A stretch of 64,000 bases of DNA from an uncultured Thermococci archaeon (GCA_964595645.1 CAZQQT010000003.1:157636-221635), one strand, 5' to 3'; positions 4,246 through 17,695 are shown, numbered from the stretch's first letter. A program made the numbers and translations. Notes: generated by a model not told the origin, from the sequence alone.

Positions 4246-5355
4246 TTAAACTTTTCGAAGGATACGTATCGGATCGTCAATAGATCCACCGTGACACTTC
4301 AGCAGTCTGTGTCTCATGGCAATAATCCGTTCAGTTGTACTTCCATACCGTCTAGAACATTCTCCACAGATGCATATATCATACTGGGGGCAAATGATAT
4401 ACATTGCTTCATCTCGTGCAATTCCCATCTTCCTTATACTTTTCTCAGCTCTTTCTTGTTCTTTAGCGTCAACATGGAATCGTTCTCCAAAATGATAGAT
4501 ATTCTCAAAGCATAATGTAATATAAGGAGAGAAGAGTACGTGGTTTCTAAGAGATTTCCTCTGTACGGCCTTCTGTTCACTGTAGGGTATACCGCGATCG
4601 GTGAGCGCGATTGTTCGTTCTTCTCGTCTCGAAAGATCCCGTAGTCCTTCATTCCTTTTGGAAGCTATTGTTCCCGCTCTTCTTCTCCTGTGGGGTGTCG
4701 TACCGCCGATGTAGAATCCGGCTTCTAAGAGGCCTGCCCTCATAGAGGAAGAGGAGGAGTACGTCAGTAGTACACCATGCTCGTCCATTACGTTGTATAG
4801 CTTCTCAAAAAATCCAACAGAGTACGGTCTCCAATCATGTTTTGGTGAGTACGCATCGTGAAACACAACATCGACTGTGCCTGAATATTCATGAGTCAGT
4901 GCATCTACCATTGAAAGATGTACATTCTCTGGCCGCTCATAAACTTTGTTCTGTACAATCCCATTTTTATACAGCGAATCCTCAATCGCACTCTTGATCG
5001 TTCTGTGAGCCCCACAGAGATCGGGTATCAACAGCGCCATGGCCAATATCTCCGAACCCTTCTCGATCATCTCTATATGCAAGTTTGGGTTACGTTCCAA
5101 GGCCGCAGTGGCGTTGTATCCGAATCCAGAAAAAAGATCCAACAGGGCTGTTCTTTTTTCAATGTTTGCAGGCTTACAGAACTTATGGACACTCTCATCG
5201 TAGGCACCGGTGATAGAGTGCATTGTCTCCCGAAGAACGGGATCTTCGTAGGTATACGTAGCGTCTCCTGTTTTTACAAAAAGATGGCTAATTTTTTTAA
5301 AAAACTGTTTCCTTTCTTTCTTAGTTCGCTTCTTTGAGAAAAACTCTTTGATCAT
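4246..5355 (-). CDS. MnmC/MnmD-like SAM-dependent methyltransferase with C-terminal Cys cluster
   Basis: ETMHS..GA..ES..KF, LDLFSGFGYN, FHDAYSP, TYSSS, CPQ..CIC..C. Confidence 0.82.
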   Translation of the reverse strand: MIKEFFSKKRTKKERKQFFKKISHLFVKTGDATYTYEDPVLRETMHSITGAYDESVHKFCKPANIEKRTALLDLFSGFGYNATAALERNPNLHIEMIEKGSEILAMALLIPDLCGAHRTIKSAIEDSLYKNGIVQNKVYERPENVHLSMVDALTHEYSGTVDVVFHDAYSPKHDWRPYSVGFFEKLYNVMDEHGVLLTYSSSSSMRAGLLEAGFYIGGTTPHRRRRAGTIASKRNEGLRDLSRREERTIALTDRGIPYSEQKAVQRKSLRNHVLFSPYITLCFENIYHFGERFHVDAKEQERAEKSIRKMGIARDEAMYIICPQYDICICGECSRRYGSTTERIIAMRHRLLKCHGGSIDDPIRILRKV

Positions 5356-6224
5356 AACTCAATCATCATCCTGTCCTCTGCAATTACCACGTTGTCCGTG
5401 TATTTTTTTACCTCGTTCTCAATTTCTTCGGTGTTATACCGCTGACTAATGTGTGTCAACGCAAGTTTTTTTGCACCTATTTTCTGCGCGGCTTCGCATG
5501 CTTCTTGTATCGTGGAGTGGTATGTATCACCTCTATCTTCTTCTTTGAGGAAGGTGCTCTCGTGGATGAGAAGATCGGCCTCCTCCCATGAGATAGGAGT
5601 AGGGAGTGTATCCCCAGTGTACACAACGGATCTCCCAATGTTTTTTGGGCCTGTTACTTCATCCAATGTTATTTTTCTACCATTCACAATAATTTCACCA
5701 TTTTTCTCTAGTTGAGAAAACATTCTTCCTTCTATCCCAAGTTTTTTTGCCTTTTCCTCGATGAAATTTCCTCGTTTGTCCTTTTCCTTGAAAATGTATC
5801 CTAAGGATGGAACACTATGATCTGTCTCAAATACCCGAATGTAAAAATCTTCAAAGTCTATGGTATCTCCATCTTCTAACTCGTGTACATCCACATTGAA
5901 GGTAATACCAAAATGGCCAGATTTGAACAGATTTTGGAGGAAATAAATAGTGTTTTTGGGCCCATAAATACTTAGTGGATCCGTTCTTTCCTCCAGTGAC
6001 ATTGTCATCAACAAACCTGGTATCCCCAACACGTGATCCCCATGGAAGTGCGTGAGGAAGATTGAAGATACCTTCGAGGGTTTCACCAGCGAGATCATCT
6101 GTCGCTGTGTGTTCTCTCCACAGTCAAACAGTACAACGTTGCCCTGGTACTGAATAGCGATGGAAGAGAGTCCCCGTTCCTTCGTCGGTTTCGATGCCGC
6201 TGTCCCTAAAAACACAACTTTCAT
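5352..6224 (-). CDS. rnz: Ribonuclease Z
   Basis: FLGT, FDCGE.TQ, THFHGDHVLG, YTGDT, HESTF, LTHISQRY. Confidence 0.96.
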   Translation of the reverse strand: MKVVFLGTAASKPTKERGLSSIAIQYQGNVVLFDCGENTQRQMISLVKPSKVSSIFLTHFHGDHVLGIPGLLMTMSLEERTDPLSIYGPKNTIYFLQNLFKSGHFGITFNVDVHELEDGDTIDFEDFYIRVFETDHSVPSLGYIFKEKDKRGNFIEEKAKKLGIEGRMFSQLEKNGEIIVNGRKITLDEVTGPKNIGRSVVYTGDTLPTPISWEEADLLIHESTFLKEEDRGDTYHSTIQEACEAAQKIGAKKLALTHISQRYNTEEIENEVKKYTDNVVIAEDRMMIEL

Positions 6225-6310
6225 GATGCACCTCTCTCGTGACTGCTAAAAAATGTTGTGATCATACCCACATTCTGACTCCGTAAACACTCTTCTTTAT
6301 ATTCCTTCGC

Positions 6311-7180
6311 TCATTCAGCCTTTGGAACACTGGAAAATCTACTTATGAGCAGAAGCACACCTGCACCTATAGCCCCAAAAAAGAGCAATGAGAAAATATC
6401 TCCATTAATTTTCTTTATCGGTGTTCCCAGTCCACCGATCATCAACCCGATTAAAAATGTTATTGTTTGATCGTGGTATTTTTTCAGCAGCCAGTTCAAA
6501 AATTTAGACATTGCACACAACCCCATCAGTACTCCTGTGGTAAACACAGTGATTACAGAAATGTTCACCTCACTCACTTCTCCTACAAGGTACTGGTACT
6601 GGTTTAACATTAAAAGGACATATGAACCAGAAATTCCGGGTAGTATCATGGCAGAAAACGCGAAAAATCCAGAAATAAAAATTATAGGAGCTGAATGATC
6701 TATTGCAACTGTATTCACTGACGAGATTATACCACCGGTCAGGATCCCCATACCGATGAAGAGCAGACATCCTGAGAGAATCGATCTGTTCTGTGTGGAG
6801 AGCATGTAGATGCTCATTGCAATTAACCCCACGAAAAACGAAAAGACCTGTGCTTGATAGTTATTAATCAGGTTGTTCATAAGCTCTATCACTAAGAAAA
6901 GGGCAAAAAAAACGCCAAGATATAGGTTTACTAAAAATTTTAATTCTTGGCTTTTTAATAGATCCAAAGGACTTTGCATTGTTGAAAGTACATAGGAAAT
7001 ACTCTTTATGAGTTTTTCGTATATTCCAAGGATCAGCGCTATCGTGGCACCAGAGACTCCGGGAATCGCATCGGAAATCCCCATTAGGCATCCATAAAAA
7101 AAAATTCTTATTTTATCAGCAAATGGGGTGTTTTCTTTCAGCCGTACGAAAAAAGTGAGCAACAAGCTCCATTCTACCAT
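6311..7180 (-). CDS. DUF368-family membrane protein (polyprenyl-phosphate translocase family)
   Basis: MG.SDAIPGVSGATIAL.LGIY and AMILPGISGS re-entrant motifs; multiple TM helices. Confidence 0.9.
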   Translation of the reverse strand: MVEWSLLLTFFVRLKENTPFADKIRIFFYGCLMGISDAIPGVSGATIALILGIYEKLIKSISYVLSTMQSPLDLLKSQELKFLVNLYLGVFFALFLVIELMNNLINNYQAQVFSFFVGLIAMSIYMLSTQNRSILSGCLLFIGMGILTGGIISSVNTVAIDHSAPIIFISGFFAFSAMILPGISGSYVLLMLNQYQYLVGEVSEVNISVITVFTTGVLMGLCAMSKFLNWLLKKYHDQTITFLIGLMIGGLGTPIKKINGDIFSLLFFGAIGAGVLLLISRFSSVPKAE

Positions 7181-11261: not shown

Positions 11262-12269
11262 GTGTCGCAGGTGACGCAACTACGTCAAACTAAGGAGAAA
11301 GAGGTAAAAATCACAGTGATAGACTACGATGAAAATCAATCCAAGGAGAAAGAGATAGCGAACATCAAAGAATGTTTCCCGTTCAAAGAGACTCCTACAG
11401 TTACGTGGATAAATATTGATGGGATTGCTCCCTCTATCATTGAAACATTAGGGAGTCATTTTGAACTTCATCCGCTCATTCTTGAGGATATCACAACCTC
11501 TCAACGTCCGAAGATAGAAGAGTCGGAAAACTACATTTTTATCATCGTGAAAATGCTTCATGAAGAGGACAGTGAGCTACAAATAGAACAAGTGAGTATC
11601 ATTCTCGGTCCAACTTTTGTCATTTCTTTTCAAGAGGGAGAAGGGGATATCTTCGATGGAATAAGAGAGAGAATTACGCATAAAAAGGGCCGTATACGGA
11701 GTAGAGGTGCAGATTATCTCGCATACAGCTTAGTAGATGCTATCGTAGATAACTATTTCGTGCTCCTGGAACATGTGGGAGAGAAAATAGAGGATTTAGA
11801 GGAAGAGTTGGTAGGGGATCCATCACCCAAAACGCTTCACCGTATCCACGCTCTAAAACGTGAGATACTTTTCCTCCGAAAATCAGTATGGCCTCTACGA
11901 GAAGTTATCAGTAGATTGGAGCGGATAGAATCATCCCTTATCCAGGAATCAACAGAGATATACTTTAGAGACGTGTATGAACATACCATCCAGGTCATTG
12001 ACACAGTAGAAACGCACAGGGACATGCTTTCTGGAATGCTTGATATCTATCTTTCCAGCGTGAGCAATAAGATGAACGAAGTTATGAAAGTACTCACTAT
12101 TTTCGCGTCGATATTCATCCCTCTGACATTCATTGCTGGTATTTATGGAATGAACTTCCAGTATATGCCTGAATTAGCGTGGCGCTGGGGATATTACGTC
12201 GTGCTCTTGGGGATGGGAATAGTTATTGCGGTAATGCTCGTATATTTCTGGCGGAAGGACTGGTTGTGA
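11262..12269 (+). CDS. corA: Magnesium/cobalt transporter CorA
   Basis: WINIDG, HPLILEDI, QRPKIE, MNEVMKVLT, GIYGMNF, MPEL. N-terminus short and start uncertain. Confidence 0.94.
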   Translation: MSQVTQLRQTKEKEVKITVIDYDENQSKEKEIANIKECFPFKETPTVTWINIDGIAPSIIETLGSHFELHPLILEDITTSQRPKIEESENYIFIIVKMLHEEDSELQIEQVSIILGPTFVISFQEGEGDIFDGIRERITHKKGRIRSRGADYLAYSLVDAIVDNYFVLLEHVGEKIEDLEEELVGDPSPKTLHRIHALKREILFLRKSVWPLREVISRLERIESSLIQESTEIYFRDVYEHTIQVIDTVETHRDMLSGMLDIYLSSVSNKMNEVMKVLTIFASIFIPLTFIAGIYGMNFQYMPELAWRWGYYVVLLGMGIVIAVMLVYFWRKDWL

Positions 12270-12275
12270 ACACTA

Positions 12276-12492
12276 TTACCATTGAAGCTCAATCGCATCC
12301 ACGGGGCAGCTCTCGGCAGCCTTCTCCACACACTCTGATTCGTCGGGCACTTCTCCCGTATGAGCGTTCTCCTGCTGATACTCTTCAACTAATACTGATT
12401 TCCCTTCAGCATTCTCTTCAAATACGTAGGGACACAGTCTGTAACATACCACATGCAATACACGTATCCTCATCTATCATTACTTTTACCAT
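12276..12492 (-). pseudogene. Monocluster ferredoxin, frameshifted
   Basis: ATG at 12492 reads MVKVMIDEDTCIACG; the continuation CYRLCPYVFE...AAESCPVDAI is in another frame. About 2 nt are missing near 12445. Confidence 0.85.
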
Positions 12493-12515
12493 CTTTTCAC
12501 CTTTTACAATTTAAT

Positions 12516-13426
12516 TTAATGTTTCCAATCCACGTATTTTTCCCCTCGTAACTCAGCGATGAGATTTAACGCTGCCTTTGCTCCTTCTCCCACCGCAGCA
12601 CCGATTTGTCTCACCTTGCCGGTACAATCGCCGGCCGCGTACACCCGTGGCACCTGCGTGTATTGGGTCTCGTCAACGACGAGTCGTCCGTCACGAATTG
12701 TGATTCCGAGAGCCCGAGCGAAATCCAACGAGCCACTCGTCCCCTCTGCAATAATCAATCCTTCCATTTCTTTTACCCCTTCGTCAAACTTTACTCCCTG
12801 AAACATCTCATCGCCATATATACCTTTTATTCTATTTTTGTTTATGGGAATATTCCGTTTTTCTAACTGTTTTTGTAGGATTCCACTCACGTCTAAATCC
12901 TTACCATTCGTGTAAATTGTCACGCCCTGTGTGTATTCGTACAGTTCTATCGCTTCTTTTACAACAAGATCTTCAGAACCAAGTACTCCCACGGTTCTAT
13001 CTCGGAAGAGAGGAGCATCACAGGTCACACAGTAACTTACACCTTTTCCTTCATATGCTTCTATTTCATCTATTTGTGGTTTTTGTGTTGGATCCCCGGT
13101 GAGAGTATTAACGATCTGGCAATATACGCGTTCGTAGCAGTTTCAACTCTGTAATTCCCATTATCTATTTTAATTAAAAGTACCTTTTCTCTTTTTACTT
13201 CTGCACCAAATTTTTCTGCCTGTCTTTTTCCGCGTTGAAGTATCTCTTTCCCGGAAATTCCTTCTGGAAATCCAAAATAATTTTCTATCACCCTCACCTT
13301 TTCCAAAAGTTTATCCGGCTCATCCAATACCAGTGTATCAAAATCTGCTCTCGATGTATATATCGCTGCAGATAGACCTGCCGGGCCGCCTCCAATTATC
13401 ACTACATCGTATTTATTCTCACTCAT
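12516..13426 (-). pseudogene. trxB: Thioredoxin-reductase-like FAD oxidoreductase split by a 1-nt frameshift
   Basis: GGGPAGLSAA in the 5' ORF. Adding one A in the run at 13080-13084 gives HKKPQIDEIEAYEGKGVSYCVTCDAP...YAAGD. Confidence 0.85.
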
Positions 13427-13470
13427 CTCTATCGCTTTTTATTTTCAATACGTAGTTTGGGGCACAATGT

Positions 13471-14109
13471 TCATTCTTCCTCAAATATCACTACGACCTT
13501 TTCCACATCCCCCCGATGCTCGATTTTCTCGTGTATATCTTCTTTAATCGCATTGGCAAACTGGTGATCCTCGACAATGTCGATAGTAATCGTTACCGTT
13601 CCATCATCCACCGTTACCTCTTTGATCAGTTCTGTTCGAACGACATCCAGTCCTGTCATGGGGTTCATGACATGTCTGAGACGCTTTTTTACTACCTCCT
13701 CTGTTGTAGGCTCTCGTTCCGTTACGAGTCCATGTCGTTCCTCGTAATCCCGTATTGCCTCACGTAGCCCTTCCACCGCGAGTACAGAACAGTGTGCCTT
13801 TATTGACGGTAGACCTCCAAGTTCCTCAGATGCGTCCTGCCACGTGATCTTTTTTGCCTCGTCAATGGTCTTTCCCTTCGCCATTTCTGTGATGATTGAT
13901 CCTGTGGCAATATTCGACGCACAACCGTAGGACTCAAACTTGATATCTGTGATTTTATGTGTCTCCTCATCTACCTTAATGTACACAGATACCATATCAC
14001 CGCATGCAGGACTGCCTTCTTGGGCCTTTCCGTCAGGATCCTCCATTTTTCCTACATTTTTTGGATTTTTGAAATGCTCTATTACCGTCTCACTATATGG
14101 TGTCTTCAT
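13471..14109 (-). CDS. iscU: IscU/NifU Fe-S scaffold fused to a DUF59-like domain
   Basis: YSE.V.EHF.NP.NVG, SPACGD, GCAS, KAHC; C-terminal LRHVMNP.TGLDVV DUF59-like segment. Confidence 0.9.
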   Translation of the reverse strand: MKTPYSETVIEHFKNPKNVGKMEDPDGKAQEGSPACGDMVSVYIKVDEETHKITDIKFESYGCASNIATGSIITEMAKGKTIDEAKKITWQDASEELGGLPSIKAHCSVLAVEGLREAIRDYEERHGLVTEREPTTEEVVKKRLRHVMNPMTGLDVVRTELIKEVTVDDGTVTITIDIVEDHQFANAIKEDIHEKIEHRGDVEKVVVIFEEE

Positions 14110-14113
14110 ATAT

Positions 14114-15283
14114 TTATTCCTCCTTTCCTAATGGACTTATCTCCCTCAATCTCTCCACGATATCGGATACAGTGGTAACAACGATATCAACTTCATTCAT
14201 GGTGTTGAACCGCCCTAGCGTAAACCGTACCGAGCCATGAGCCCGTTCATGGTTCCCCCCGATGCCCATTATTACATGGCTCGCCTCAAGCGAGCGACTG
14301 AAACATGCTGAGCCGGTGCTGACCGCGACGCCTCGCATATCCATGTGAAGCGTAATAGATTCGCCTTCTACGTAATGGAACGTGATGTTCGCATTGTGCG
14401 GTACTCTCTGCTCTCTGGAACCGTTCAAGGTTACATCGGGGATCTCTGAGAGAATACGATCAATGAGATGATTCCTCATTTTCTCCAGTTTAGTGTTCTC
14501 TTTAGGTGTGACCAGCTCTACTGCTTTTGCGAACCCGATGGCGCCGGGAATATTCTCGAGTCCTCCCCGCGTATTGAACTCCTGGAATCCACCATCCATT
14601 ATCTTGGTGAGAGGCGCCCCTTCACGTACGTAGAGGCCTCCAATCCCCTTGGGGCCATGAATCGTATGTGCCGATACTGTTATCATATCTACTGGTATCT
14701 CCTGAACGTCTATAGGCACTCGTGTGAAGGTATGGGTCGCGTCCGTGTGGAACAACACGTTGTTTTCCTTGCATATCTCCGCGATCGTTTTGATATCCTG
14801 CAGCGTTCCTATTTCTTGGTTCGAGTGTTGTATAGACACGAGAATTGTCCTCTCCGTTATTGCATCATCCAGTTGATCGAGGTCCACGAACCCGTCACTG
14901 TCAACATTGAGCTGTGTCACCTCAAACCCTTCTTTCTCTAGTGTTTTCGCACTGTGGAGCACGGGGAAATCTTCTATTTTTGAGGTAATAATATGGGTTC
15001 CCTTTCTCTCTCCGAGTTTCTTAGCGACTCCTTTAAGTGCGAGGTTGCTGGATTCTGCAGAACCCGAGGTGAAGATGATCTCGTTCGGATCGGCACCGAG
15101 TGTTGTGGCAATTGTTCCCCGTGCACTGTCAAGACTTTCCTTGGCTTCGACACCCAACGAGTATCCAAACTCGGAGGTAGGTACCGTGTATGTATTGAAA
15201 AAGTACGGTTTCATCGCCTCGAGCACTCGTTCGTCCATTCTTGTGCTGGATGCATTGTCCATGTAAATAAAGTTGTCATCCAT
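14114..15283 (-). CDS. IscS/NifS-fold protein lacking the PLP-binding lysine (probable non-catalytic desulfurase homologue)
   Basis: YMDNASST, IIFTSG, NQEIGT.Q, STGSAC and GSVRF are present, but SAHTIHGPKG has K->T, EDFPV has H->D and RGGL has T->L. Confidence 0.9.
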   Translation of the reverse strand: MDDNFIYMDNASSTRMDERVLEAMKPYFFNTYTVPTSEFGYSLGVEAKESLDSARGTIATTLGADPNEIIFTSGSAESSNLALKGVAKKLGERKGTHIITSKIEDFPVLHSAKTLEKEGFEVTQLNVDSDGFVDLDQLDDAITERTILVSIQHSNQEIGTLQDIKTIAEICKENNVLFHTDATHTFTRVPIDVQEIPVDMITVSAHTIHGPKGIGGLYVREGAPLTKIMDGGFQEFNTRGGLENIPGAIGFAKAVELVTPKENTKLEKMRNHLIDRILSEIPDVTLNGSREQRVPHNANITFHYVEGESITLHMDMRGVAVSTGSACFSRSLEASHVIMGIGGNHERAHGSVRFTLGRFNTMNEVDIVVTTVSDIVERLREISPLGKEE

Positions 15284-15291
15284 CGTACCAC

Positions 15292-15714
15292 CTATGAGAT
15301 AAACAAGGTAATTTTAGACTCTCTCGCTTCTTTAATGTAGGTTCCTACTGCACAGTACTCGGTGATTATGTCATCACGCAGATCGTCCTTCTCAAGCCCC
15401 ATAATGTCCATGGTCATATCGCAGGCAAGTATCTTACCACCTAACTCTACGTAATCCTGTAACATCTCCTCCAGCGATCGCACATTCGCCTTCTTCATCC
15501 TCCGATTCAGTAGCCATTTTCCAAGGCCGAGGAAGTGCATTCGAGAGAGGGGTCCTTGCTCCAGCTGCCCCTTTTTGAGCCTTTCAAGTCCCCAGAATGT
15601 GAAGTACATCGATACATCCATGCCCATGGCAAGCGCACCATTGCCGATGATGAGGGCACTGTAGAGTTTGTCCATCTCACCACTCTGTACGATCAGCGTG
15701 ACCTTCTCTGTCAT
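15292..15714 (-). CDS. DsrE/DsrF/DrsH-like (DsrE2-type) sulfur carrier
   Basis: SG.MDK, GA.AMG..V.MYFTFWGL, ACDMTMDIMG, TLFI C-terminus. Confidence 0.9.
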   Translation of the reverse strand: MTEKVTLIVQSGEMDKLYSALIIGNGALAMGMDVSMYFTFWGLERLKKGQLEQGPLSRMHFLGLGKWLLNRRMKKANVRSLEEMLQDYVELGGKILACDMTMDIMGLEKDDLRDDIITEYCAVGTYIKEARESKITLFIS

Positions 15715-15715
15715 C

Positions 15716-15955
15716 TTACTCCTCCTCGGGAATCTTGATTGTGATTATCCACGTACCATTCTTCTCCTCGACGCTTACAAGCTCTAACCCAAGAGACTCC
15801 ACTGCCATAGGGATCTCCTTTTTGGATGCAGGGTGATCGCCGATGATCTCGACGATATCGCCAGGATTAGCCTTCCTCACAGCCTTCCGGGTTTCTACCA
15901 GCGGAACTGGACATGTCTCTCCTACCACTGTTATCTTTTTTTTCACAATTTTCAC
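15716..15955 (-). CDS. tusA: TusA-family sulfur carrier
   Basis: GETCPVP, G..VEI..DHPAS..EIP. Confidence 0.9.
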   Translation of the reverse strand: MKIVKKKITVVGETCPVPLVETRKAVRKANPGDIVEIIGDHPASKKEIPMAVESLGLELVSVEEKNGTWIITIKIPEEE

Positions 15956-16062
15956 CTATTCCTCTTCTATATTTATGTGCGTGCAATCTATATAAATTTT
16001 ATTCGTCGCTAAGTTAACTGATAAAAGAATAAGTTTTATATGCGTAGAAAAGAAGCTCCACT

Positions 16063-16389
16063 ATGTCATTCAAAAATCTCAATGAGATGGATGCGACTGA
16101 GGTCGTTCCTGGGTTCCACGGGAAGTTTGTGCACTCAGATCACGTGACCTTTGCACACTGGCATATCGAAAAAAACGCGACACTCCCTGAGCACTCTCAC
16201 GAACATGAACAGATCACCAGCGTGCAGGAAGGGAAACTGAAGCTTACGATACAGGGAGAGACAAAAACGATGGGGTCCGGCGAGATCGCGGTAATTCCAC
16301 CGAATGTGACACACTCAGGGAAGGCACTCGCTGCGTGCAAGGTCATCGATGTGTTCTACCCTGTACGAGAAGAGTACATACAGGAATAA
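16063..16389 (+). CDS. Cupin-domain protein
   Basis: HSHEHEQ, IPPNVTH, DVFYPVRE.Y. Confidence 0.9.
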   Translation: MSFKNLNEMDATEVVPGFHGKFVHSDHVTFAHWHIEKNATLPEHSHEHEQITSVQEGKLKLTIQGETKTMGSGEIAVIPPNVTHSGKALAACKVIDVFYPVREEYIQE

Positions 16390-16426: not shown

Positions 16427-17620
16427 CTATGTCGTGAGTGCGCTCTCTACTGTTTCTTTTGTAAAAAACATTACTAGTAGTACTGTTGTCACCATGAGTA
16501 ACGAAAGCAAATACAATGGCGATTCATGTGAGACGTCCTGATACAAGATCCCTAGTAACATTAATCCCAAGATACGTCCCGATCCCATAATGACCTGGAG
16601 ACTTCCAAGAATTTTTCCTCGCAGCTCTGGCAACGTAACATCTGCAGTAAGTGCTTGTATCGCTGGGTTGTTCATCGCGATTCCAGCGCCGATAAATGCA
16701 CCGGTAAGGTATACTTGGAGGTGTGTGTGAGCCCACGTGTAGATGTAGACGCCCACAGCAATAATTATCCCGCCTGTGATGATCAGCGGCTTCCGCCCCA
16801 CTCGATCTGAGACTCTCCCGAAGAGATACGTGAACGAAATAATGGTAATTCCCTGTGCGAGAGAAATTATCCCAAGCTGAAAACTGGAAAATCCAAGCTT
16901 GTCGGAAAAATAAAGAACAATAATGAGAGAAAAAACTCCTTGCATCATCCCTATGGCAAATGCACGGAAAGAGATTACCTTTAAAGTGTCATTTTGAGCG
17001 ATATTCTCTTTCAAAGCAGAAAAAACACCCTTGTACTGTCTTCCACTCGTCGTCTTCTTCGCCTCGTGAAGGGGGAAAATGACCACTGCAGCTACCACGG
17101 CGATGAGCGCAGTGAAATAAAATGGTGTTTCCAATGTGTACATATCTGCAAGAAAGCCTCCAACCGATGGACCGACAAAGGCACCGATCATCTGCACAGT
17201 TGACACGAAGCCGAGAATCTCACCTCGTCTCCTTTCATGGGCAAGATCCATGGTGAGTGCGAGGACTGCTGGAGTAATAATCGCTGACCCAACTCCTTCA
17301 AGCACGCGCAACACCCCGAACTGGAAAGGTGTCGCTATCACAGCCATGAGTGCAGTAGAAAAACCGAAAAGAAGGAGACCACCAGAAACAAGTTTCGCTC
17401 GAGGATACTTATCAGCTAAAATACCAGTATAAAAGACTGCAATCACGTATGACACATTGTATAGGGAGTAGACACTGCCTAAAATTTTCGCGTCCATGCC
17501 TAGTAACTCAGCATAGAGTGGCATCACGGTGGAAAGAAATGAAAAACCAAGACTGCTGATAAATAATCCTACTGCGAGAATGAGGATAGTTCGTGAGATT
17601 CCCTTTCCATGATTACTCAT
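16427..17620 (-). CDS. MFS transporter
   Basis: G.LADKY.R and GRVSDRVGRK loops; about 12 TM helices. Confidence 0.92.
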   Translation of the reverse strand: MSNHGKGISRTILILAVGLFISSLGFSFLSTVMPLYAELLGMDAKILGSVYSLYNVSYVIAVFYTGILADKYPRAKLVSGGLLLFGFSTALMAVIATPFQFGVLRVLEGVGSAIITPAVLALTMDLAHERRRGEILGFVSTVQMIGAFVGPSVGGFLADMYTLETPFYFTALIAVVAAVVIFPLHEAKKTTSGRQYKGVFSALKENIAQNDTLKVISFRAFAIGMMQGVFSLIIVLYFSDKLGFSSFQLGIISLAQGITIISFTYLFGRVSDRVGRKPLIITGGIIIAVGVYIYTWAHTHLQVYLTGAFIGAGIAMNNPAIQALTADVTLPELRGKILGSLQVIMGSGRILGLMLLGILYQDVSHESPLYLLSLLMVTTVLLVMFFTKETVESALTT

Positions 17621-17695
17621 GCACTGTGTACACATTGCACCTTAAATATATACGCCCTTATGCTATGAAAGATGTAAAAGGTAACGTGAGGGAAA

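Follow-up and report, generated by a model that had tools for sequence, protein, structure and literature searches.

In Escherichia coli, the persulfide formed by a pyridoxal 5'-phosphate (PLP)-dependent IscS is handed on to TusA or IscU (PDB 3LVJ, 3LVL). The IscS of Archaeoglobus fulgidus carries Asp in place of the PLP-binding Lys and is inactive as a desulfurase; the Cys of its loop serves as a ligand to a [2Fe-2S] cluster on IscU (PMC7585200; PMC13066941; bioRxiv 10.1101/2024.03.20.586028). In Methanosarcina acetivorans, IscS1 (MA0808) is without the Lys and the PLP residues; it carries the loop STGSACFS, was detected in the proteome and is insoluble alone (PMC7585200). IscU1 of the same organism (MA0807) has a mass of 24.2 kDa (PMC7585200, Deere et al. 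2020). According to a 2026 review (PMC13066941), the MIS system of iron-sulfur (Fe-S) cluster assembly is the least studied one, its sulfur and electron donors being unresolved. Here, a locus is described that lies at positions 12,276 to 15,955 of a 64,000-nucleotide stretch of DNA from an uncultured Thermococci archaeon (GCA_964595645.1 CAZQQT010000003.1:157636-221635; this whole stretch is called the window). It encodes a Lys-less IscS/NifS homologue, designated IscS*, together with the sulfur carriers TusA and DsrE and an IscU fused to a DUF59 domain (IscU::DUF59).

Judged from gene content and conservation, the functional unit at this locus is a four-gene cassette of tusA, a DsrE2B-like dsrE, iscS* and iscU::DUF59, which is conserved across bacteria and archaea. 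The cassette is a variant of the minimal IscS/IscU (MIS/ISC-type) Fe-S assembly system and the counterpart of the uncharacterised isc1 cluster of M. acetivorans. The loop STGSACFS of the Lys-less IscS is identical in both, the ~24 kDa of IscU1 fits a DUF59 fusion, and Methanosarcina loci (L053, L012, L015) fall within the IscS* clade with TusA-DsrE upstream. In those loci the spacing is wider and HIT-family genes are neighbours, whereas gaps of 1, 8 and 4 nt and a broken reductase-ferredoxin pair are found here. The carrier genes are not named in PMC7585200, where the cluster is uncharacterised, and no paper naming a TusA-DsrE-IscS-IscU::DUF59 module was found in the literature searched. An earlier note on this DNA had proposed a distinct Fe-S module. 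The conserved four-gene cassette with its Lys-less IscS agrees with that proposal, but the outline was already visible in isc1, and in this respect the module is not new.

The A. fulgidus IscS2-IscU pair (PDB 4EB5, 4EB7, 4HVK, 4R5F) resembles the present one in that an IscS without the PLP Lys is encoded beside IscU. It differs in the replacing residue, which is Asp there and Thr here, and neither TusA/DsrE partners nor an IscU::DUF59 fusion are reported for it (PMC7585200; PMC13066941). The chain 4EB5 matched IscS* with 330.7 bits, a value within the range obtained for PLP enzymes (312-340 bits). Because the A. fulgidus protein scores no closer to IscS* than these enzymes do, the Lys was probably lost independently in the two proteins. 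With the E. coli complexes, the cassette shares three protein families and the same catalytic Cys; the difference lies in the formation of the persulfide by IscS, of which IscS* is predicted to be incapable.

The rebuilt PLP pocket of IscS*

The iscS* gene (14114-15283, minus strand) encodes a class-V-fold IscS/NifS homologue of 389 residues. The protein was matched by Pfam Aminotran_5 with 236 bits across residues 6-367, and its AlphaFold2 model displayed a class-V aminotransferase fold with a predicted local distance difference test score (pLDDT) of 92.4 and a predicted template modelling score of 0.91. It stayed under all NCBIfam equivalog cut-offs, the best being NifS TIGR03402 (452.1 vs 530.75); for IscS TIGR02006 the values were 398.8 vs 643.2. 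Thr207, in the motif SAHTIHGPKG, was aligned opposite the Lys of the solved desulfurase 9wep (SAHKMYGPKG). The catalytic loop reads STGSAC, the canonical sequence being SSGSAC, and its Cys327 is kept and invariant in the clade.

The pockets of 56 IscS* and 25 canonical IscS sequences were compared column by column in an alignment. It was found that the PLP contacts were swapped as follows, from canonical to IscS*: H105D, N156Q, Q184H, K207T/L/S/N and T242V/L/I. Two further columns that are invariant in canonical IscS were also changed (V183T and D79S). The replaced contacts correspond to H104, N155, Q183, K206 and T243' of the E. coli enzyme; there the His stacks on the ring, the Gln contacts O3', the Lys forms the Schiff base and the Thr, which comes from the partner subunit, binds the phosphate. 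At column 207, Lys was present in 25/25 canonical sequences and in none of the 56 IscS* sequences or of their 120 nearest database homologues. The new residues were just as regular: D105 and Q156 occurred in 56/56 IscS* sequences and H184 in 55/56, and all three were found in 120/120 of the nearest homologues. D181, S204, H206, R353 and Cys327 were retained, the last two being invariant, and the mean pairwise identity among IscS* proteins was 70% across both domains of life. A strictly conserved site in the former cofactor pocket would consist of Asp105, Phe106, Gln156, Thr183, His184 and Thr207, with His206 and His209 kept.

Since the replacement residues are themselves fixed, Cys327 and R353 are invariant and the identity averages 70% across both domains, the alignment argues that the pocket of IscS* was remodelled under selection and did not decay. 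The Schiff-base Lys and four more PLP contacts are gone, and therefore the usual formation of a persulfide from cysteine is not expected; cysteine desulfuration by IscS* is very unlikely. The claim of the earlier note that this IscS is probably unable to mobilise sulfur from cysteine was thereby borne out at the level of sequence, and annotations of the clade as cysteine desulfurases would be functionally wrong.

Conservation of the cassette and its partner proteins

The linkage between these genes was evaluated in a locus scan with one genome per species, in which partner genes were detected by tblastn. The scan returned 80 loci, 55 with IscS* and 25 with canonical IscS. IscS proteins of the first group were 63-71% identical to the query and lacked the Lys in 55/55 cases; those of the second group were 45-53% identical, had the Lys in 25/25 cases and were accompanied by plain IscU. 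IscS* was adjoined by IscU::DUF59 in 54 of the 55 loci, by TusA in 52 and by DsrE in 47. A further 11 IscS* loci were taken from genomes of the archaeon's own order, all of them (11/11) with the full four-gene cassette, and in the resulting set of 66 loci IscU::DUF59 was adjacent in 65, TusA in 63 and DsrE in 58. The Lys-bearing IscS of the 25 canonical loci had none of the three beside it. The earlier note had set beforehand, as one observation that would speak against it, a lack of conserved linkage between Lys-less IscS and tusA/dsrE; the linkage proved to be near-universal in the IscS* clade and absent from the canonical loci.

The hosts of IscS* loci include Chloroflexota, Syntrophales, Acetobacterium, Methanosarcina, Methanomassiliicoccales and the archaeon's own order. 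The pattern spans at least 8 phyla, related genomes being non-independent samples, and identity within the cassette stays at 60-75% across both domains. In the tree, IscS* formed a single clade (support 100) in which archaea and bacteria were interleaved, with nine Methanosarcina/Methanosarcinaceae loci inside. Two gene orders were observed, TusA-DsrE-IscS*-IscU and IscS*-IscU-TusA-DsrE, the order of TusA and DsrE being constant in both. The second arrangement was seen in a single Chloroflexota subclade and, next to it, in two rows left unresolved (L005, L016), a distribution consistent with one rearrangement.

No other widespread partner was detected. Clustering of open reading frames (ORFs) over the 55 scan loci put no family other than the four of the cassette above 20 loci. 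No further conserved partner emerged when 150 ORFs that flank the cassette or are inserted in it, taken from 45 loci, were tallied by Pfam family; the commonest families in this tally were Asp/Glu racemase (6), HIT (5) and rubrerythrin (4). At the level of the locus, HscAB, IscA and Fdx were not among the conserved neighbours in either analysis.

The tusA gene (15716-15955, minus strand) encodes a carrier of 79 residues that was matched by Pfam TusA with 74.6 bits. Its CPxP motif, with Cys15, Pro16 and Pro18 (C15-P16-x-P18), was invariant in 37 cassette homologues. The scores stayed under the NCBIfam cut-offs for TusA (39.6 vs 78), YedF (45.8 vs 79) and YeeD (23.5 vs 147.5), which places the protein, as far as profiles can tell, within the family and outside these named orthologue groups. 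It was the single PF01206 match in the host genome, which is 99.96% complete. The product of dsrE (15292-15714, minus strand) is a soluble DsrE2B-like carrier of 140 residues. It was matched by Pfam DrsE_2 with 125.7 bits and by NCBIfam DsrE2 with 69.5 bits, under the cut-off of 210. The closest solved chains were 2QS7, a Saccharolobus DsrE2B (65.5 bits), and 3PNX, in which the active Cys was aligned with Cys98; this residue was kept in 45/46 homologues.

Side-by-side genes for DsrE- and TusA-family proteins with a conserved Cys are also known from the relays of sulfur oxidisers, such as DsrE3A to TusA in Metallosphaera cuprina and the sHdr cascade (PMC11094781). Those relays feed dissimilatory oxidation (sHdr, rDsr), whereas the carriers described here accompany an Fe-S scaffold pair in strict anaerobes, and the cassette DsrE resembles the soluble DsrE2B type (2QS7).

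The scaffold gene iscU::DUF59 (13471-14109, minus strand) encodes a fusion of 212 residues, of which 1-130 correspond to IscU (Pfam NifU_N, 149.8 bits) and 131-212 to DUF59 (FeS_assembly_P, 40.7 bits). Cys36, Asp38, Cys63 and Cys107 are present in the IscU part, and the LPPVK-type motif reads LPSIK. The three ligand Cys residues were invariant in 52 homologues, and so was Asp38. The IscU part scored 155.5 against an NCBIfam equivalog cut-off of 187.9. No Cys occurs in the DUF59 domain.

In the 1.97 Mb host genome the cassette is accessory, because a second, canonical iscU-iscS pair is encoded on another contig of the genome (C4:43467-45000); in that pair iscU comes first and the PLP Lys is present (SSHKLYGPKG). 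No match to SufB/D was found in this genome, which is unusual for an archaeon, and McrA gave no match in it either. In family f2 of the same order, SufB was present in 14/14 genomes and the cassette in 11/14. Four of these f2 genomes (G009, G020, G024 and G028, 96-98% complete) had IscS* as the only strong Aminotran_5 match. Therefore, no recognisable IscS/NifS/SufS-type cysteine desulfurase would serve the IscU::DUF59 that they carry along with IscS*, and their gene content fits a non-cysteine sulfur supply. A search of five other genomes from the host's own family did not detect the cassette. This absence and the interleaved tree point to horizontal acquisition, and to a unit that is horizontally mobile.

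The reductase-ferredoxin pair and the variable neighbours

All six frames of the locus are co-directional on the minus strand, and the intergenic gaps from tusA to the ferredoxin gene are 1, 8, 4, 44 and 23 nt. The frames and gaps given in the earlier note were thus reproduced, and Pfam agreed on every family. Its six-gene operon stands for the four intact genes; the trxB-like and ferredoxin genes are frameshifted as assembled, a feature the note did not mention. The divergent intergenic region at 15956-16062 is probably the operon promoter of the minus-strand genes, as read from TTTATATA (15989-15996), which resembles an archaeal TATA box, and from a GAGG located ~6 nt ahead of the GTG start of tusA. 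In the 44 nt that separate iscU::DUF59 from the reductase gene (13427-13470), ~20 nt ahead of the ATG, lies an A/T-rich stretch, ttgaaaataaaaa, and the reductase-ferredoxin pair may have a promoter of its own.

The trxB-like flavoprotein gene (12516-13426, minus strand) encodes a protein with a CVTC disulfide centre and was matched by Pfam Pyr_redox_2. As assembled, it is split into frames of 118 and 170 residues by the loss of 1 nt at ~13076-13087, in the run cacaaaaacc. The first frame ends ...LILSPGIQHKNHK-stop and the sequence continues in another frame as ...KPQIDEIEAYEGKGVSYCVTCDAPLF. In the intact orthologues P0122 (303 aa) and P0124 (302 aa), with 63-75% identity, residues 1-113 matched the first frame and residues from 114/115 to the end matched the second. 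Read-through by selenocysteine or pyrrolysine was considered for the split gene and rejected, since the halves lie in different frames. The single-cluster ferredoxin gene (12276-12492, minus strand; Fer4_15/Fer4_13 type, with 45.3 bits to Fer4_15 on the downstream frame) has a 2-nt deletion at ~12445-12449, within the CxxCxxCxxxCP motif. It reads MVKVMIDEDTCIACGM in one frame and CYRLCPYVFE... in the other, the break separating CIACGM from CYRLCP. The intact 71-residue ferredoxin of L105 reads CIGCGMCVSTCP and aligned to both frames, which indicates the 2 missing nt.

The closest solved chain to the reductase was 5NII, and 6GNA-6GND were among the matches; the latter are ferredoxin-dependent thioredoxin reductases. 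The protein resembles these atypical flavin thioredoxin reductases in its CxxC centre, in the paired gene for a small ferredoxin and, as in 5NII, in that no NADPH motif could be recognised by eye on the alignment. It differs from them in that the gene is interrupted here and is unlinked to the cassette elsewhere. No close orthologue was present among 30 related genomes, where only paralogue-level matches (≤38% identity) were obtained; a database search detected intact orthologues in other lineages, in Thermoplasmatota-like metagenome-assembled genomes (MAGs).

A fixed reductase-ferredoxin pair with a gap of 22-23 nt was observed in L105-L108. In L105 (4575-9072), L107 (138-3916) and L108 (2471-6407) it follows one or two hemerythrin genes (DUF438-hemerythrin, hemerythrin) and stands beside Hcp (Prismane); an HTH-V4R regulator comes next in L105 and L107, and L108 ends within Hcp. 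Hemerythrin, reductase, ferredoxin and Hcp genes are a candidate set for redox or nitrosative stress, and this set and the cassette meet repeatedly in one archaeal lineage. The pair did not adjoin the cassette at any of 66 further IscS* loci, where reductase matches were limited to a distant one (29-32% identity) in L010, ~3 kb downstream and on the opposite strand. The earlier note had assigned electron supply to TrxB and ferredoxin as parts of the module. This assignment was not supported, the genes being non-adjacent in the 66 other loci, frameshifted here and members of a hemerythrin/Hcp-linked pair. The reductase-ferredoxin genes are a separate, locally juxtaposed pair and neither a core component nor a required electron supply.

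The locus is flanked by a gene for a CorA-type Mg/Co transporter (11262-12269, plus strand), which converges on the ferredoxin gene with 7 nt between the ends, and by a small cupin gene (16063-16389, plus strand), divergent from tusA, followed by a major facilitator superfamily transporter gene (16427-17635, minus strand). None of these three is conserved beside the cassette at other loci. The possibility that the cupin gene is an orthologue of a cupin gene near the L081 cassette was rejected at 22% identity.

At other loci the neighbours varied. In three Anaerolineales loci a ferritin gene was located between iscS* and iscU::DUF59 (L005:3421-3909, L028:4218-4709, L040:6587-7078), and in a Dehalococcoidia subclade the same position was occupied by one or two genes of the Asp/Glu/hydantoin-racemase family (L007:7148-8613, L023:7222-8635, L024:2602-3303, L011:2216-2893). 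In L109 (7118-10006) a YHS-domain gene lies between tusA and dsrE and an HMA/P-type metal ATPase gene follows, and L110 has an HMA gene near the cassette (5424-5650). In a Thermoplasmata MAG (GCA_046484045.1, L081:4541-5566), TusA is the C-terminal domain of a DUF438-hemerythrin-TusA fusion of 341 residues. This cassette, whose IscS* is 74% identical, is among the nearest relatives; a second hemerythrin gene comes after iscU::DUF59, a gene for a Nfu-type NifU is located upstream, and the locus has no reductase-ferredoxin pair. A rubrerythrin gene neighbours the cassette in 4 loci. The racemases aside, these variable neighbours fit an iron/Fe-S theme, possibly linked to stress, and none of them is general.

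Possible routes of sulfur to the scaffold

If IscS* is unable to make a persulfide, any sulfur passing between IscS* and TusA or IscU would therefore start elsewhere. In the reading that we prefer, and to which an even chance is given, TusA and the DsrE2B-like protein would bring sulfane sulfur that does not derive from cysteine to Cys327 of IscS* and/or to IscU. The carriers would be loaded from a non-cysteine source and would then pass the sulfur on. IscS* would pair with IscU as the scaffold and assembly complex, in which Cys327 would act as persulfide acceptor and/or, as in the IscS-IscU complex of A. fulgidus, as fourth cluster ligand. The DUF59 domain would assist the transfer of the finished cluster to client proteins.

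Pairwise complex prediction had been suggested in the earlier note as a check. IscS* with TusA scored 0.34, against a maximum of 0.00 among three controls. At least 91% of contacts were shared between runs, and the pLDDT of the partner was at least 84. In the calibration, the mark was reached by 58/80 solved complexes and by 2/110 mismatched pairs; at scores of 0.60 or below it was reached by only 7 of the 80 solved complexes, along with both passing mismatches. The prediction thus passed the mark over its controls but at a weak score, and the E. coli homologue is a solved complex. The modelling lends weak support to an IscS*-TusA interaction and shifts the odds of the preferred reading little.

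Several observations weigh against a supply of IscS* and IscU by the carriers. The pass of the weak IscS*-TusA prediction may reflect memory of the solved E. coli IscS-TusA complex 3LVJ. An E. coli Fe-S mutant was not rescued by the iscS2U2 genes of A. fulgidus, even when sulfide was supplied (bioRxiv 10.1101/2024.03.20.586028). An adjacent DsrE is missing in an Anaerolineales subclade, and L025 and L035, of Methanosarcinales type, have neither carrier. In L036, a Methanobacteriaceae MAG (5343-7155), TusA-DsrE-IscS* is present and no IscU occurs within 6 kb downstream, which makes it the only such IscS* locus. Neither the clustering over 55 loci nor the tally of 150 ORFs revealed a conserved electron donor for the reduction of persulfide to sulfide. 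Finally, the cassette coexists with another Fe-S system in every genome examined (canonical IscSU in the host, a SufB-type system in f2), and for this reason it is not demonstrably a general Fe-S machine.

Some of these points are shared by an explanation in which the IscS*-IscU::DUF59 pair builds clusters from free sulfide. IscS* would then be a structural partner and the donor of a Cys ligand, and TusA and DsrE would buffer or detoxify sulfane sulfur or protect the thiols of the scaffold. The Lys-less IscS of A. fulgidus has been described as a ligand donor and not as a sulfur donor (PMC7585200; bioRxiv 10.1101/2024.03.20.586028), the hosts, as anaerobes, usually have sulfide at hand, no persulfide reductant is conserved with the cassette, and L025 and L035 are without carriers. 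However, TusA adjoins IscS* in 63/66 loci and DsrE does so in 58/66, with neither beside canonical IscS-IscU, a pattern not easily reconciled with carriers that are functionally unconnected with the pair; the two carriers also stay together in the same order in both cassette arrangements. Moreover, the A. fulgidus protein (330.7 bits) is no closer to IscS* than PLP enzymes are (312-340 bits), so that its behaviour need not transfer. This explanation is considered unlikely.

A role in back-up Fe-S assembly or repair, under oxidative, nitrosative or copper stress or under iron limitation, appears less likely again. Iron- and stress-related genes do occur near the cassette: ferritin in three loci, hemerythrins and Nfu in L081, rubrerythrin in four loci, a YHS protein with a P-type metal ATPase in L109 and an HMA protein in L110. 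The reductase-ferredoxin pair that is adjacent here is found elsewhere with hemerythrins and Hcp, and the cassette was never seen without another Fe-S system. However, no neighbour of this kind is conserved, the commonest family reaching only 6 of the 150 ORFs from 45 loci. Such a role also concerns when the module is used and not how; it overlaps and is compatible with a supply of sulfur by the carriers.

It is improbable that IscS* serves as a docking adaptor in a relay from TusA and DsrE to thiolated tRNA, molybdenum cofactor or another thio-cofactor, with IscU::DUF59 as an accessory. E. coli TusA does work with IscS in tRNA thiolation and in the synthesis of molybdenum cofactor (PMC13066941), and any TusA-dependent pathway of the host must use the cassette copy, since it is the only TusA of the genome. 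Nevertheless, IscU::DUF59 is the most strictly linked partner of IscS* (65/66) and its cluster ligands are invariant, and no recurring genes for tRNA thiolation or molybdenum cofactor were found in the neighbourhoods by ORF clustering or the Pfam tally. That the cassette is a decaying, non-functional acquisition of the host is scarcely credible: two adjacent genes are frameshifted and the cassette, not found in five other same-family genomes, was probably acquired, but the four core genes are intact, every diagnostic residue is kept and the frameshifts hit the non-core pair only.

The proposal that TusA and the DsrE2B-like protein supply IscS* and IscU with sulfur may be taken one step further. 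IscS* would be a new kind of non-PLP protein, whose rebuilt pocket would bind another ligand, for example iron or a persulfide or polysulfide, and which would form with TusA and DsrE2B a cysteine-independent route of sulfur, and perhaps of iron, to IscU. This extension is put forward tentatively, as more doubtful than probable.

These observations bear on how sulfur enters Fe-S clusters without a cysteine desulfurase in strict anaerobes and in many archaea. The cassette provides a concrete hypothesis open to biochemical tests, and the genetically tractable M. acetivorans already carries it. If IscS* does form part of a delivery route without PLP, this would represent a distinct way of making Fe-S clusters, used by anaerobes without a cysteine desulfurase.

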